Assembly: GCA_902797105.1 (NCBI GenBank)
Contig: CADBRL010000029.1
Location: 1 to 37,246 of the forward strand
Direction of reading: 5' to 3'
Source of the DNA: an uncultured Erysipelotrichaceae bacterium
GTDB taxonomy: Bacteria; Bacillota_I; Bacilli_A; RF39; UBA660
Length of the DNA: 37,246 nucleotides
In this document: in pieces, positions 1,310-3,892 of the stretch
Position numbering within the stretch: the first letter of the stretch is position 1
How the letters are laid out: every line of letters begins with the position of its first letter
Made by a program: the position numbers and the translations under genes
The notes under the pieces: model-generated
Told to the model about the DNA's origin: nothing
The model's input: the letters and a program-made list of their open reading frames with translations, nothing else
Database searches by the model: none

Positions 1310-2605
1310 CTACAACTTCACAATTTCTTTAACTTTTTCAGGATTTTTTAAATCAATTTCAAAATTATTTTGATTTATCATATCCTTAACAGTTACTTTA
1401 CCACTTTTAACTTCATCTTCACCAACAATTATTACATATGGGATATTTTCTCTATTAGCAAAGTCTAAACTTTTTTTAAGTTTTCTACTTTTCATTTCTA
1501 TATCAACATTATATCCATAACTTCTTAGGGTATCCGCTAAAGATAAAGCTTCCATGTCAACACCCATTGGAATTATATAAAACTTAATATCTGATGTATT
1601 TTTAAAATCATCTCTTGTTTTAAGAATTTCATAAATTGATGTTAAACCGAAACTAATACCAACTGCAGGATAAACTTCACCATCATTAATATATTCAGTG
1701 ACCATTTTATCATATCTACCGCCGCCACCGATAGAACTTGTTAAATATCCTGACTTATCATATACTTCAAAAACATTACCAGTATAATAATCTTGACCAC
1801 GAGCAAGTGTTAAATCAATTTTACAAATTTCACTAAACCCTAATTTTTCAAGATATCCCTTTAATGTATCAATTTCCTTAATACCTAAAGTAAGTTCTTC
1901 ATTTGAACTATCTTTAAACATATCCTTTATTTTATCAATATCCAATTTAAATAACATAAGAAGTTTATCGATTTGTTCATTTTCTATAGCTATTTCAATT
2001 AAATATGTTCTAAGTTCTGCTTCAGTTATCTTATTCATTTTATCAAGTATTGTTATTACTCTGCTTATTTGTTCTTCACTAACACCAGCTTCTTTTATAA
2101 GACCACGCATTAAATTTCTATTATTATATTTAATTATAATATCAATACCCAACTTTTTAAAAGCATTAATATATAAACTTAAAAGTTCTGCTTCAATAAA
2201 TTGACCTTCAATACCTACAACATCTGCATCACATTGTGTAAATTCTCTATCTCTACCAACTTTAACTGGGCCATCTCTAAATACTTTAGCTATTTCATAT
2301 CTTTTAAATGGCATTGATATATTGTTCTTATTTAGAGCAATAAACTTAGCAAATGGTACAGTTAAATCGTATCTTAATCCAAGTTCTCTTCCTCCTTGGT
2401 CACTTAACTTATAGATTTCTTTAAGTAAATCATTATTTTCATCATACTTATCTACTAGCATATCTAAGTAGCATAAAATCGGAGTTTCAATTGAACCATA
2501 ACCATATTCCATAAAAGTTTCTTTAAGTACTCCATTAATATAATTTCTAATTTTTTGTTCTTTAGGTAAAAAATCATAACCACCTTTTACATTTTGAATT
2601 TTCAT
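1310..2605 (-). CDS. hisS: histidine--tRNA ligase
   Basis: 431 aa class II aaRS. HisRS signatures LRYDLTVPFAKF, FRDGPVKVGRDREFTQCD and GGGGRYD, plus a C-terminal anticodon-binding domain. GAGGA SD lies 5 nt before the ATG. Confidence 0.95.
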   Translation of the reverse strand: MKIQNVKGGYDFLPKEQKIRNYINGVLKETFMEYGYGSIETPILCYLDMLVDKYDENNDLLKEIYKLSDQGGRELGLRYDLTVPFAKFIALNKNNISMPFKRYEIAKVFRDGPVKVGRDREFTQCDADVVGIEGQFIEAELLSLYINAFKKLGIDIIIKYNNRNLMRGLIKEAGVSEEQISRVITILDKMNKITEAELRTYLIEIAIENEQIDKLLMLFKLDIDKIKDMFKDSSNEELTLGIKEIDTLKGYLEKLGFSEICKIDLTLARGQDYYTGNVFEVYDKSGYLTSSIGGGGRYDKMVTEYINDGEVYPAVGISFGLTSIYEILKTRDDFKNTSDIKFYIIPMGVDMEALSLADTLRSYGYNVDIEMKSRKLKKSLDFANRENIPYVIIVGEDEVKSGKVTVKDMINQNNFEIDLKNPEKVKEIVKL

Positions 2606-2636
2606 ATTTTCCTCAATCCTTCCTTATAATAATTAT

Positions 2637-2672
2637 TTAAAAAAGCTATACAAGTAGTTACTTGTATAGCTT
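2637..2672 (-). terminator. intrinsic terminator (attenuator) in the hisS leader
   Basis: Minus strand reads aagctatacaagta-ac-tacttgtatagctt, a 13-14 bp perfect stem, followed by TTTTTT. It sits about 30 nt upstream of the hisS start. Confidence 0.65.
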
Positions 2673-2714
2673 AAAATATACAAGCACTACAATAAGCACT
2701 TGTATTTACAACCT

Positions 2715-2780
2715 TTAATGTCGTAAGTCCAAGTGCATGATTTTATGATGATGAACTATTCTTTCTAAATATTCTTTCAT
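2715..2780 (-). CDS. putative His-rich leader peptide (21 aa: MKEYLERIVHHHKIMHLDLRH)
   Basis: Hand translated. ATG 2780, stop 2715-2717. AAAGGA lies 9 nt upstream. 5 of 21 codons are His, including CAT CAT CAT (plus strand 2745-2753). It lies between the hisS promoter and the attenuator hairpins. An in-frame alternative ATG is at 2789. Confidence 0.4.
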   Translation of the reverse strand: MKEYLERIVHHHKIMHLDLRH

Positions 2781-2807
2781 AAAATACATTCCTTTCAAAG
2801 CAAGTAC

Positions 2808-2837
2808 ATTATAACACAACTATATTATATTTGTCAA
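2808..2837 (-). promoter_or_regulatory. sigma-A type promoter for the hisS leader
   Basis: Minus strand has TTGACA (2832-2837), an 18-nt spacer, then TGT-TATAAT (2808-2813), a near-consensus extended -10. Confidence 0.55.
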
Positions 2838-2880
2838 AACCTATATCAATATTCTAAGATTTTTAAAATATATAATCAAC

Positions 2881-2945
2881 AAAAAAATGCTTATTTGTCA
2901 TTATAAATGTTCAAATAAACATTAACACAAAAAACAAGTAAGCAT
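2881..2945 (-). terminator. long hairpin plus T7 run insulating hisS from upstream transcription
   Basis: Minus strand reads atgcttacttg ... caaataagcat: an 11-bp stem with 1 mismatch and an inner aatgtt/aacatt hairpin in the loop, followed by TTTTTTT. Confidence 0.4.
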
Positions 2946-3047
2946 CTGACATACTAAAATCAAATATTCTTTTTTTATTATATGAAATTTGTTTTCATAT
3001 ATACTTCTATCTTATTTTAATTCAAATTTCAAGCCACAAATTTTACC

Positions 3048-3082
3048 AAAAAAAATAAAGCCTACTCTATAAGCTCTATTTT
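3048..3082 (-). terminator. probable sigE terminator
   Basis: Minus strand reads aaaatagagc-ttatagagtag-gctttatttt, a 10 bp stem including one G-U pair, running into a long T tract. A second hairpin (gtgaaattgg/ccaattcac) lies just upstream at 3086-3108. Confidence 0.4.
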
Positions 3083-3208
3083 TAAGTGAATTGGAAACCA
3101 ATTTCACACTATCCCTTTTATTCTAGCTACTGCTAGCTTAATTAAATTATATGCTATAAATTTTTACTTTGCAATATATTTTACACATATATTTACAATA
3201 TCTTTACA

Positions 3209-3892
3209 TTATCTAATCATAACTTGTTTTAATTTTCTAACCACTTTCTTTTCAATTCTTGAAATATAAGATTGGCTTATCCCTAGCATTTCTGCTACTT
3301 CTTTCTGAGTATATTCCTTAGTATTATTAAGACCATATCTAAGTGTCATTATCTCTTTATCTCTATCAGGAAGGCCTTCAATTTCTTTACATAAAACCTC
3401 TTTATCCACTTGTTTTTCATATTCATTTGGTACTAAATCTATCTCTGTACCTAAGATATCTTCAAGATGAAGTTCATTGCCTTCGGCATCGTAATTTAAA
3501 GCATCTTCAAGTGATACTTCTGCTCTTTTTCTTTTATTTTTTCTTAAAAACATTAATATTTCATTAGAGATACATCTTGATGCATAAGTAGCAAGTTTAA
3601 TATTTTTATCAATCTTATAAGTATTTATACCTTTGATAAGTCCGATCGAACCTATACTTACTAAGTCTTCAATATCATAAGTGGTATTTTCATACTTTTT
3701 AGCTAAGAAAACAACTAATCTTAAGTTATGTTCAATTAAGACATTTCTAGCTTCCTCATCACCAGCTTTGGCTTTAATTAAATAAGCAAGTTCTTCATCT
3801 TTGGAAAGTGGTGGTGGTAATTTATCGGTTGCCCCCACAAAAAAAACTTCATTGTACTTACTAAATAACCATTCAATTATTTTTCTAAACAT
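3209..3892 (-). CDS. sigE: pro-sigma-E, sporulation mother-cell sigma factor
   Basis: 227 aa. EVFFVGATDKLPPPLSKDEE, IEHNLRLVVFLAKKY, KLATYASRCISNEILMFLRK and GISQSYISRIEKK align closely with my recollection of Bacillus SigE. It sits immediately after spoIIGA and overlaps it by 16 nt. Confidence 0.9.
   Translation of the reverse strand: MFRKIIEWLFSKYNEVFFVGATDKLPPPLSKDEELAYLIKAKAGDEEARNVLIEHNLRLVVFLAKKYENTTYDIEDLVSIGSIGLIKGINTYKIDKNIKLATYASRCISNEILMFLRKNKRKRAEVSLEDALNYDAEGNELHLEDILGTEIDLVPNEYEKQVDKEVLCKEIEGLPDRDKEIMTLRYGLNNTKEYTQKEVAEMLGISQSYISRIEKKVVRKLKQVMIR

Follow-up and report, generated by a model that had tools for sequence, protein, structure and literature searches.

In the enterobacterial his attenuator (hisL; RF00514), stalling at consecutive His codons picks among chained hairpins that include an intrinsic terminator, with the pairings A:B, C:D, and E:F set against B:C and D:E. 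In E. coli, an aminoacyl-tRNA synthetase operon, pheST, lies under the Phe-rich leader peptide pheM and is controlled by a terminator/antiterminator. His-leader attenuators have also been predicted in the Bacillota: in 2010 for hisZ and for a Bacillus hisS paralog, "hisS*" (Naville & Gautheret, PMC2965389), and in 2022 for the his operons of the B. cereus group, the Peptostreptococcaceae, and six Erysipelotrichales (Ashniev et al., PMC9413887). Among the ribosome-mediated attenuators of this phylum that have been studied experimentally are S. aureus ilv-leu (PMC5794164) and B. subtilis bmrCD (PMC4191407); yxjB, where ribosomes stall on a leader peptide, is of this type too, and NusG-dependent pausing is described as providing its coupling (PMC6851288).

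Here, we describe a putative attenuator in front of hisS in a window of 37,246 nucleotides, the whole stretch of DNA that was analyzed, from an uncultured gut bacterium. The first-pass annotation of this DNA had proposed that a His-codon-rich leader ORF and a chain of mutually exclusive hairpins stand before hisS in place of a recognizable T-box, and it had called such control unusual for the phylum. The last point was overstated, given the earlier predictions for Bacillota (PMC2965389, PMC9413887). Like those elements as they are described, the window leader has a short ORF whose run of consecutive His codons falls within their range of three to five, and just 3' of this ORF come an attenuator hairpin, an antiterminator, and a terminator. 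The window leader too stands where a T-box might be expected and comes from the same host phylum, and some of its relatives are labeled Erysipelotrichaceae. The published cases are all computational predictions, and one of them has a HisRS gene as its target. That one, Bacillus hisS*, is an extra paralog beside a T-box-controlled hisS (PMC2965389), and the 2022 survey does not mention hisS, the target here (PMC9413887). As portrayed in their respective reports, ilv-leu, bmrCD, and yxjB likewise let translation of a leader ORF choose the RNA structure in a Gram-positive host, but they respond to branched-chain amino acids or antibiotics, and their sequences are unrelated to ours.

The window gene scored 351 bits against TIGR00442 (cut-off 287) and 181 bits against the HisZ model TIGR00443 (cut-off 272). 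Its best model was NF009085 (PRK12420), at 481 bits and below the cut-off of 540. Near-identical proteins carry the Pfam domains PF13393, PF03129 (the anticodon-binding domain), and PF00587. We conclude from these matches that the gene is a histidine--tRNA ligase gene and not hisZ. A protein search with this HisRS returned matches that were all at least 95% identical and came from gut metagenomes.

The whole leader arrangement lies on the minus strand, in the order promoter, Shine-Dalgarno sequence, 21-codon ORF, five alternately complementary segments (S0 to S4), terminator, and hisS (Table 1). Every feature named in the first-pass annotation was found where it had been placed, including a near-consensus promoter with an 18-nt spacer, which proved to have the TG of an extended −10 as well, and an ORF with five His codons in all. 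A TTGACA/TATAAT-like pair sits at the same place in relatives. Judging by the position of the promoter, transcription would start near position 2801, about 21 nt before the ORF; from there to the terminator is about 160 nt, of which 66 nt are ORF. We considered whether the leader terminator might be the end of the upstream gene sigE and rejected this: sigE stops at 3209, a terminator-like hairpin and T-run near 3047-3080 belong to it, and the leader is served by a separate promoter matching at 12/12 positions. Within the window, we found no second copy of the leader module. The 15 occurrences of CAYCAYCAY in the window fall in arbitrary frames and on either strand, and they are not informative.

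Table 1. Positions of the hisS gene and of its leader elements in the window
Feature	Position	Strand	Remarks
-35 hexamer TTGACA	2832..2837	(-)	With the -10, 12/12 hexamer match; 18-nt spacer
Extended -10 TGTTATAAT	2808..2816	(-)	TG precedes the second hexamer
Shine-Dalgarno GAAAGGA	2790..2796	(-)	GAAAGG-like motif at a fixed distance from the leader ATG in 16/16 aligned leaders
P0 5' arm ATTTTATG	2778..2785	(-)	Leader start codon and 5 nt upstream; RNAalifold consensus; partner 2740-2747
Leader ORF MKEYLERIVHHHKIMHLDLRH	2715..2780	(-)	21 codons and TAA; ATG at 2780, TAA at 2717-2715
Three consecutive His codons CAT CAT CAT (HHH)	2745..2753	(-)	Proposed stall site
P0 3' arm CATAAAAT	2740..2747	(-)	Third His codon and 5 nt; RNAalifold; in the window MFE fold
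S0 GCACTTG	2730..2736	(-)	Within the ORF; contains the fourth His codon, CAC
Inner hairpin TTACGAC / GTTGTAA	2706..2726	(-)	Last His codon and stop codon in loop and stem
S1 ATACAAGTGC	2696..2705	(-)	Partner of either S0 or S2
U-rich S1-S2 loop TTATTGTA	2688..2695	(-)	TTNTTT-like
S2 GTGCTTGTATA	2677..2687	(-)	Partner of either S1 or S3
S3, terminator 5' arm	2660..2672	(-)	Partner of S2 (antiterminator) or S4
S4, terminator 3' arm	2643..2655	(-)	13-bp stem with S3, 4-nt loop
Terminator T-run, six T's	2639..2644	(-)	Two T's (2644-2643) are the 3' end of S4; four unpaired
hisS, histidine--tRNA ligase	1310..2605	(-)	431 aa; ATG at 2605

The T-box leader (RF00230) of Bacillota hisS belongs to the same gene and phylum and is expected to serve the same physiological end, raising HisRS when charged tRNA(His) runs low, through a terminator/antiterminator choice. 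It senses uncharged tRNA directly, without a ribosome, and its hallmarks are absent here. Could the leader nonetheless be a degenerate or very short T-box, or some other tRNA(His)-sensing leader beyond the reach of covariance models? In favor of this, hisS of Bacillus and of many Bacillota carries a T-box (PMC2965389). However, no Rfam family matched at gathering score anywhere in the window, and neither the T-box nor His_leader (RF00514) matched at E <= 10 in 2500-3300; nor did T-box, His_leader, or any other Rfam family match in the 35 related hisS loci scanned (20 close, 15 distant). Allowing as many as 3 mismatches, we found the T-box sequence GGGTGGTACCGCG (..GGGUGGUACCGCG..) nowhere in the window. 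Stem I with its specifier loop and distal-loop motifs is absent: the 5' part of the leader is the ORF, where only the weak P0 hairpin is predicted, and a leader of this length with such an ORF leaves no room for Stem I. The first-pass statement that no T-box is recognizable thus held, and we regard a hidden T-box as extremely unlikely. Weak snoRNA and sRNA matches at E <= 10 in 2500-3300 were set aside as chance matches to the hairpins. RF00514 was likewise not found in Firmicutes by Ashniev et al. (PMC9413887).

All four pairings of the chain claimed for this leader are present. By predicted energies, S0:S1 has 7 bp around the 7-bp inner hairpin (-17.0 kcal/mol), S1:S2 has 10-11 bp including 2 G-U pairs (-12.5 kcal/mol), S2:S3 has 10 bp (-9.6 kcal/mol), and S3:S4 has 13 bp (-15.9 kcal/mol). 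The leader as a whole folds at -50.3 kcal/mol (z = -5.1; 0/200 shuffles were as stable), and the scanned 1-kb region holds 1 terminator-like site where 0.1 would be expected. Folding successive prefixes, we observed that the structure alternates with each added segment, from S0:S1 to S1:S2, then to S0:S1 with S2:S3, and finally to S1:S2 with S3:S4.

The leader recurs in many genomes and metagenomes. Of the 21 closest hisS loci, 15 carry it, the least similar at 59% HisRS identity. A metagenome scan with a pattern for S0-S1-S2 only, in which no upstream His codon was specified, returned 120 stretches, 88 of them with an in-frame His cluster upstream. About 85 further distinct copies came from metagenomes; most of these, having been found with a pattern in which much of S0, S1, and S2 is fixed, add little independent evidence for the helices. 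Family counts below refer to 87 distinct members.

S0:S1 is paired in 99% of cells and S1:S2 in 96%, with 2 and 3 pairs, respectively, changed on both sides, and no shuffle equaled the covariation score of either helix. At one position the three segments covary together, S0/S1/S2 reading G/C/G in 79 members and A/T/A in 3; L012 and L019 carry the triple compensatory change. S2:S3 is paired in 94% of cells, but its column-based support is weak, 49/500 shuffles having matched the covariation score; its register is shifted in relatives, as in GCCTGTAT:ATACAGG and CTACTTATATAG:CTATATAAGTA. S2 is complementary to the terminator arm in 24 diverse members, and in a per-sequence duplex test this complementarity beat shuffled arms (p <= 0.05) in 12 of the 24, a moderate result. 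S3:S4 is paired in 91%, with a G-C to A-U change in 5 sequences, and an intrinsic terminator is present in 82 of the 85 members with enough sequence. The inner hairpin, by eye, is retained in relatives with other sequence, for example as GGCATT..AATGCC in L016.

The coding features are conserved alongside the structure. The leader ORF is present in 85 of the 87 members, with a peptide of 18-22 codons in 81. His occupies the three HHH positions in 79, 76, and 82 members, encoded by both CAT and CAC, while the two codons directly 5' of HHH are highly variable. Spacing is regular: 8-10 codons precede HHH in 74/87 members, the distance from HHH to the S0 His codon is exactly three codons in 81/87, and 11-17 nt lie between the end of the stop codon and CAAGT of S1 in 76/87. 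Among 16 aligned leaders, indels within the ORF are of 3 or 6 nt and keep the frame; downstream of it, they are of arbitrary length.

We wondered whether the ORF might go untranslated, or its translation be irrelevant, with the leader acting as an RNA-only, protein-binding, or tRNA-binding switch or as a leaky constitutive terminator. In favor of this, a further conserved hairpin, P0, pairs the leader start codon region with the third His codon region. In 52 of 85 members P0 reaches 7 or more uninterrupted bp, and in 33 of 85 it reaches 9 bp; shifted controls give 3 bp. It sequesters the leader start codon and has no place in the attenuator model. Since CAU and AUG are reverse complements, structure could account for some of the conservation of the His codons. 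But all three His positions are kept although only the third pairs with AUG, and the shifted controls reach just those 3 bp. The frame-keeping indels, the Shine-Dalgarno sequence at fixed spacing, and the conserved ORF length and stop position also speak for translation, and no Rfam family matches the leader. Moreover, leaders of distant HisRS relatives in Paenibacillus (about 40% identity) retain the His codons, ending in ...LHHHKKR-stop, in a wholly different RNA sequence; there, an analogous chain and terminator are built from unrelated, GC-rich sequence. We therefore hold an untranslated leader to be improbable.

If the ORF is translated, might it simply be a small gene, ending in its own terminator, whose His-rich micropeptide is functional and has nothing to do with the control of hisS? 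The conserved C-terminal HL..RH of the leader peptide speaks for this. However, the N-terminus is highly variable, and at the C-terminus the conserved codons are those that lie in paired RNA segments. Downstream of the ORF there is always the hairpin chain and then a gene on the same strand, which varies between genomes and may be hisS, hisG, or a peptidase, among others. In one relative, L004, the promoter is kept before hisS and both the ORF and the hairpins are lost. A free-standing micropeptide gene is thus highly unlikely.

Taken together, the sequence features, conservation, covariation, spacing, and predicted energies that we observed or computed point to a ribosome-mediated, histidine-sensing transcription attenuator of hisS, and we consider this reading probable. 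From them we infer translation of the ORF, ribosome stalling within it, a kinetic decision, and the direction in which the leader responds. The kept His codons, in-frame indels, fixed spacing, and three-way covariation all favor the first-pass proposal that such an attenuator stands in place of a T-box.

In this attenuator, S0, which lies within the ORF three codons past HHH, would pair with S1 as the RNA emerges. Under a shortage of His-tRNA(His), the first ribosome on the leader would stall while its A site holds one of the three His codons. Counted from the first P-site nucleotide, S0 would then start 14-21 nt further downstream and lie just clear of the ribosome, so that S0:S1 would stay, S2:S3 would pair, S4 would be without a partner, and RNA polymerase would enter hisS. 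When His-tRNA(His) is plentiful, the ribosome would cross S0 to the stop codon, which ends 8-21 nt before the S1 core. With S0 covered and S1 not, S1:S2 would form, leaving S3 free to make the S3:S4 terminator, and transcription would stop. This segment logic had been set out in the first-pass annotation, and it stands with two amendments. First, the full-length MFE fold is the terminated state (S1:S2 plus S3:S4); hence, readthrough must be a kinetic, co-transcriptional outcome. As S1:S2 plus the inner hairpin is about equal in stability to S0:S1, readthrough would rest on folding kinetics and on a ribosome keeping pace with RNA polymerase. Second, no segment pairs with S0 in an untranslated leader, so readthrough is to be expected there, just as with a stalled ribosome.

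The latter point separates the window leader from the enteric one. We take S0-S4 to correspond to segments B-F of the enterobacterial his attenuator. There is no RF00514 match, however, and the window leader has three consecutive His codons versus seven, placed upstream of the first segment and not within a segment A; its target is an aminoacyl-tRNA synthetase gene. Because an A segment is missing, a leader that is not translated should be read through and not super-attenuated, unlike in the enteric trp and his systems. The pheST operon likewise encodes an aminoacyl-tRNA synthetase, but it is proteobacterial and Phe-specific and has no sequence relation to the window leader.

The RNA polymerase of B. 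subtilis runs ahead of the ribosome; unless the polymerase pauses, this would count against the attenuator mechanism. The T's at T102, T105, and T106 of the S1-S2 loop are invariant in the 16 leaders found via protein. One could speculate that this loop is a pause site, after PMC11602163.

Two further His codons are conserved, CAC in S0 and CAT before the stop; a stall there would favor termination. Perhaps, then, the same parts work with an opposite or different polarity? With a ribosome stalled at the fourth or last His codon, S0 would be covered, S1:S2 would form, and His shortage would lower hisS. The S0 CAC is present in 86/87 members and the last-codon CAT in 66/87, and constrained folds with S0 masked by a ribosome do give S1:S2 and S3:S4. 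However, the ribosome meets HHH before S0; because these three consecutive His codons come first, His shortage should stall it upstream of S0. In addition, pairing fixes both CAC-TTG (in S0:S1) and CGACAT (in the inner hairpin), so their conservation can be put down to RNA structure. In one relative, L012, Tyr replaces the S0 His and the terminal His is missing, but HHH is kept. Finally, less HisRS, HisG, and peptidases in His shortage would be physiologically senseless. We judge a reversed polarity to be quite improbable.

The polarity originally proposed for the attenuator, with free S0 leading to readthrough, is also favored by natural variants. Besides 74 five-segment members, the family has 8 three-segment members with S0-S1-S2 only, in which a T-run follows S2 and S1:S2 is itself the terminator. 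Free S0 would mean readthrough in both designs.

Unlike the published elements, this module also precedes hisG (a lone short hisG among them), M20 peptidase, GNAT, and PRTase-SLOG operons. Induction of hisG and the M20 peptidases on His shortage, behind the same leader, is plausible. What is new here is this family of sequences, its occurrence before hisG, peptidase, and other operons as well, and the P0 hairpin; the principle is known. As this principle is textbook and similar elements were predicted before, the conceptual gain is modest.

A broader scenario can be put forward tentatively, and we think it rather unlikely as a whole: that, with this HisRS as its only, housekeeping one, a lineage of spore-forming gut Bacilli has dropped T-box control altogether and placed its histidine regulon (hisS, hisG, M20 peptidases, GNAT, and PRTase-SLOG) on one portable, default-on module. 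If this were true, termination would need a ribosome close behind RNA polymerase. Programmed pausing would be implied, with the TTNTTT-like S1-S2 loop and the S0:S1 hairpin as candidates, and transcription and translation would be tightly coupled in a bacterial class whose model organism is thought to be uncoupled. P0 would then be a gate restricting leader translation to the pioneer ribosome.

Amino-acid control in Bacillota is usually ascribed to T-boxes, riboswitches, and RNA-binding proteins. To these, the present analysis would add about 87 distinct copies of a clearly delimited leader-peptide attenuator family that no Rfam model matches. Its natural three- and five-segment versions and one natural deletion are convenient for studying kinetic decisions in relay-type attenuators, and for asking whether ribosome-polymerase coupling or pausing operates in the bacteria that bear these leaders. 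For the abundant uncultured Bacilli of human and animal guts, the family would improve annotation by marking certain genes as probably histidine responsive, namely M20 peptidases, a GNAT, a PRTase-like plus SLOG pair, and a lone short hisG.

All of the leader features that the first-pass annotation had read upstream of hisS (promoter, ORF, segments and terminator) were confirmed in every detail on the minus strand. The promoter scan gave 12 of 12 hexamer matches together with an extended -10 TG. The segments S0 to S4 are chained and alternately complementary; S0 lies inside the His-rich ORF, and S1 to S4 lie between the ORF and hisS. The predicted energies were -17.0 kcal/mol for S0:S1, inside which a 7-bp inner hairpin surrounds the stop codon, and -12.5, -9.6 and -15.9 kcal/mol for S1:S2, S2:S3 and S3:S4, respectively. 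The leader folds far more stably than its shuffles (z = -5.1), and its terminator was the sole one found in the 1-kb region scanned, where 0.1 was expected.

Coordinates of the hisS leader in the window and of leader loci elsewhere
Feature	Position or loci	Strand	Remark
-35 hexamer TTGACA	2837-2832	minus	promoter scan
Extended -10 TGTTATAAT	2816-2808	minus	18-nt spacer from TTGACA; TG present
GAAAGGA	2796-2790	minus	Shine-Dalgarno distance from ATG at 2780
P0 arms	2785-2778 with 2747-2740	minus	8 bp; part of window MFE fold
Leader ORF MKEYLERIVHHHKIMHLDLRH	ATG 2780 to TAA 2717-2715	minus	sequence
Three consecutive His codons	2753-2745	minus	within leader ORF
S0 GCACTTG	2736-2730	minus	within leader ORF
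S1 ATACAAGTGC	2705-2696	minus	downstream of ORF
S2 GTGCTTGTATA	2687-2677	minus	downstream of S1
S3	2672-2660	minus	downstream of S2
S4, then T's	2655-2643	minus	downstream of S3
hisS start	2605	minus	sequence
GC-rich His-leader loci	L020, L022, L023, L026, L034-L036, L040, L043		~100-200 nt upstream of hisS homolog
M20-peptidase leader loci	L089, L101, L103, L108, L149, L161, L168, L188, L194, L197
PRTase-like/SLOG leader loci	L184:1787-4700; also L100, L111, L134, L136, L138, L179, L181	plus (L184)

That annotation had also found no T-box hallmarks, and both a T-box covariance scan and a T-box sequence search allowing up to three mismatches came back empty. No Rfam family reached its threshold in the whole 37-kb window, and a permissive Rfam scan of 2500-3300 gave chance matches only, with T-box and His_leader both absent. 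Nor was a T-box found at the hisS loci of relatives, 20 close and 15 distant.

The 431-aa hisS product scores 351 bits against TIGR00442, the curated HisRS model (cut-off, 287); it does not pass the model of HisZ and is closest to a PRK12420-type HisRS model. On the same strand upstream of the leader lie sigE, spoIIGA, ftsZ and ftsA, and other genes in the window encode RNase J, RNase Y, NrdD, MurC and RNase R. The window represents a housekeeping stretch of a spore-former's chromosome. Closest to it among genomes are those of uncultured gut 'Bacilli' (MAGs), Clostridium sp. CAG:609 and Firmicutes bacterium CAG:460; an Erysipelotrichaceae label is attached to some relatives, and near-identical HisRS proteins are common in gut metagenomes. 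After these gut Bacilli and Paenibacillus, the next-closest HisRS relatives (~35-41% identity) belong to DPANN-type archaea, namely Woesearchaeota, Nanoarchaeota and Micrarchaeota (L021, L024, L025, L029, L031-L033 and others; L-numbers denote related genome or metagenome loci), which hints that these Bacillota carry HisRS of an archaeal-like clade.

In the intergenic stretch 3030-3200 that separates sigE from the hisS promoter, the minus strand has a promoter-like TTGCAA-17-TATAAT (3174-3146) and, besides two hairpins, a third, terminator-like one that carries a T-run. This stretch is 86-97% conserved across eight related loci, L004 among them, and had no significant Rfam match; it is possibly a small RNA or else the sigE 3' end.

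The same leader was present at 15 of the 21 closest hisS loci, where the leader peptides all fit x8-10-HHH-x3-HL-x2-3-(R)H-stop. Their RNA segments align well, and gaps in this alignment (A1) are of 3 or 6 nt within the ORF and of arbitrary length downstream, a signature of leader translation. We also scanned metagenome contigs with the pattern ACTTG..CAAGTRYTNNTTNNRRTGYTTG, which covers only S0-S1-S2 and leaves the upstream His codons unspecified; 88 of the 120 stretches returned had an in-frame His cluster upstream. Pooling hisS loci and metagenome stretches gave 87 distinct members. At the three cluster positions, His is found in 79, 76 and 82 of the 87, respectively, encoded by CAT as well as CAC, while the two codons just before them rank among the most variable. 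In 81/87 members, the spacing between the cluster and the S0 His codon is exactly three codons, and the end of the stop codon lies 8-21 nt, mostly 11-17 nt, from the S1 core. The Arg codon before the last leader His (window 2721-2723) is CGA in 66/87 members of this AT-rich lineage, and CGACAT is also part of the inner hairpin. The family-wide CGA could reflect either RNA structure or a slow-decoding codon holding the ribosome over S0.

For S0:S1, 99% of alignment cells were paired, with 2 pairs changed on both sides; for S1:S2, the values were 96% and 3 pairs, and 0/500 shuffles reached the covariation score of either helix. In slid registers, at most 60% of cells paired for these two helices. 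S3:S4 (91% paired, 1 pair changed on both sides) was reached by 1/500 shuffles, and its terminator has a G-C swapped to A-U in five sequences. S2:S3 (94%, 1 pair) was reached by 49/500; this column test is weakened because relatives use different S2:S3 registers. Sequence by sequence, the S2 region was complementary to the terminator 5' arm in 24/24 diverse members and beat shuffled arms in 12 of them. We regard as the most telling structural detail a three-way change in which S0 G->A, S1 C->T and S2 G->A occur together (L012, L019 and one metagenome member). Only pairing of S1 with each of its two neighbours predicts such a change.

Counted from the first P-site nucleotide, the ribosome's mRNA channel extends ~11-15 nt in the 3' direction. 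By the inferred geometry, S0 would begin at +14/+15 when the A site holds the third His codon and at ~+20 when it holds the first, so a ribosome stalled there would sit just upstream of S0 without disturbing S0:S1. Once at the stop codon, a ribosome would cover S0 and the inner hairpin but leave S1 uncovered. Predicted folds of leader prefixes flip with each added segment, from S0:S1 to S1:S2, then to S0:S1 plus S2:S3 and finally to S1:S2 plus S3:S4. Because the full-length minimum-energy fold is the terminated state, readthrough can arise only kinetically; S2:S3 would keep S3 occupied while polymerase passes over the T-run. Segments B-F of the enteric his attenuator correspond to S0-S4, but its His-codon-bearing segment A has no counterpart here. 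Hence, an untranslated leader is predicted to read through, and termination would need a ribosome close behind polymerase. In the U-rich S1-S2 loop, three T's are invariant among leaders found via protein alone; the loop resembles TTNTTT, a motif for NusG-dependent pausing in B. subtilis (PMC11602163). We speculate that a pause at this loop, stabilised by S0:S1, would give ribosome-polymerase synchrony.

Natural variants were observed. The five-segment form accounts for 74 members, and in 8 (L005, L006, L018 and five others) the chain consists of S0, S1 and S2 alone, with a T-run directly after S2; in these, S1:S2 is the predicted terminator and S0:S1 the predicted antiterminator. In both forms the prediction is readthrough when S0 is free and termination when it is covered, so that the predicted sign of the switch is kept despite the differing number of relay steps. 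L004:1300-1500 (78% HisRS identity) is a natural deletion that keeps the promoter, 5' UTR start and hisS; the leader ORF and hairpins are gone, and a terminator 3'-end remnant alone is left before hisS. At L007:1290-1469, a 1-nt change removes the leader stop (CGACATAAAAAA in place of CGACATTAAAAA), and the ORF continues across S1 as far as a TAG within the S1-S2 loop. Translation of this extended ORF should still lead to termination.

The RNAalifold consensus also contained a conserved hairpin, P0, that the first reading had not seen and that falls outside the attenuation model. In P0, the leader start codon together with the 4-6 nt before it pairs with the third His codon together with the 4-6 nt after it. 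At least 7 contiguous pairs form in 52/85 members and 9 in 33/85, and one position covaries, as A-U, U-A and G-U. Shifting the register to the first or second His codon leaves only the trivial 3 bp of AUG:CAU. P0 may limit leader translation to the first ribosome, or it may aid pausing.

The leader is not confined to hisS. At metagenome loci L107, L162 and L185, a short-form hisG (195-197 aa, PF01634) lies directly behind it, with the rest of the his operon absent. At L107, hisG is directly followed by a hisS 82% identical to that of the window, which raises the question of whether this HisRS doubles as the HisZ partner of HisG. Elsewhere the leader precedes M20 peptidases (~350 aa), alone or after a GNAT acetyltransferase-like protein and sometimes followed by hisS; a possible role of these peptidases is to free histidine from peptides or from acylated forms. 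In another operon headed by the leader, genes for a PRTase-like protein (weak PF00156 / PRTase-CE matches) and a SLOG cluster-4 protein (PF18306) precede hisS. The PRTase-like gene is apparently split or frameshifted in several contigs, and L138 has the first two genes with hisS absent within 1.7 kb of the leader. A further operon comprises genes for an uncharacterised 494-aa protein and an S66 peptidase, plus hisS. Since the leader precedes such varied genes in related organisms, we conclude that it is a lineage-wide, portable and putatively His-responsive module that is not hisS-specific.

HisRS relatives in Paenibacillus and other Bacillota (~40% identity) have leaders ending in ...LHHHKKR-stop or ...HYYHKKR-stop, followed by a chain AGCGTTAGC / GCTAACGCT / GCGTTGGCC ... 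and a GC-rich terminator. Their architecture is the same as that of the window leader, but the sequence is unrelated, and Rfam did not recognise them. Naville and Gautheret (2010) predicted a histidine leader peptide before the Bacillus hisS paralog 'hisS*' and hisZ, and called it the first regular leader peptide in Firmicutes (PMC2965389). Ashniev et al. (2022) predicted His-leader attenuators before his operons of the B. cereus group, Peptostreptococcaceae and six Erysipelotrichales, with 3-5 consecutive His codons immediately 5' of the attenuator hairpin and no mention of hisS (PMC9413887). Judged by their published descriptions, both resemble the window leader. Ribosome-mediated attenuation as a mechanism has been studied experimentally in Bacillota, in S. 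aureus ilv-leu (PMC5794164) and B. subtilis bmrCD (PMC4191407) and yxjB (PMC6851288). The first-pass annotation had called such attenuation of an aminoacyl-tRNA synthetase gene unusual in this phylum; it is indeed a minority solution, but one already published as a prediction (PMC2965389).

Judged from sequence, the element is real and conserved, and it is very probably functional as a ribosome-mediated histidine attenuator of hisS. As a predicted hisS attenuator, it belongs to a kind already known computationally; its notable details, all predicted, are the relay in three- and five-segment forms, readthrough as the default, a hairpin at the start codon and the spread of the regulon.
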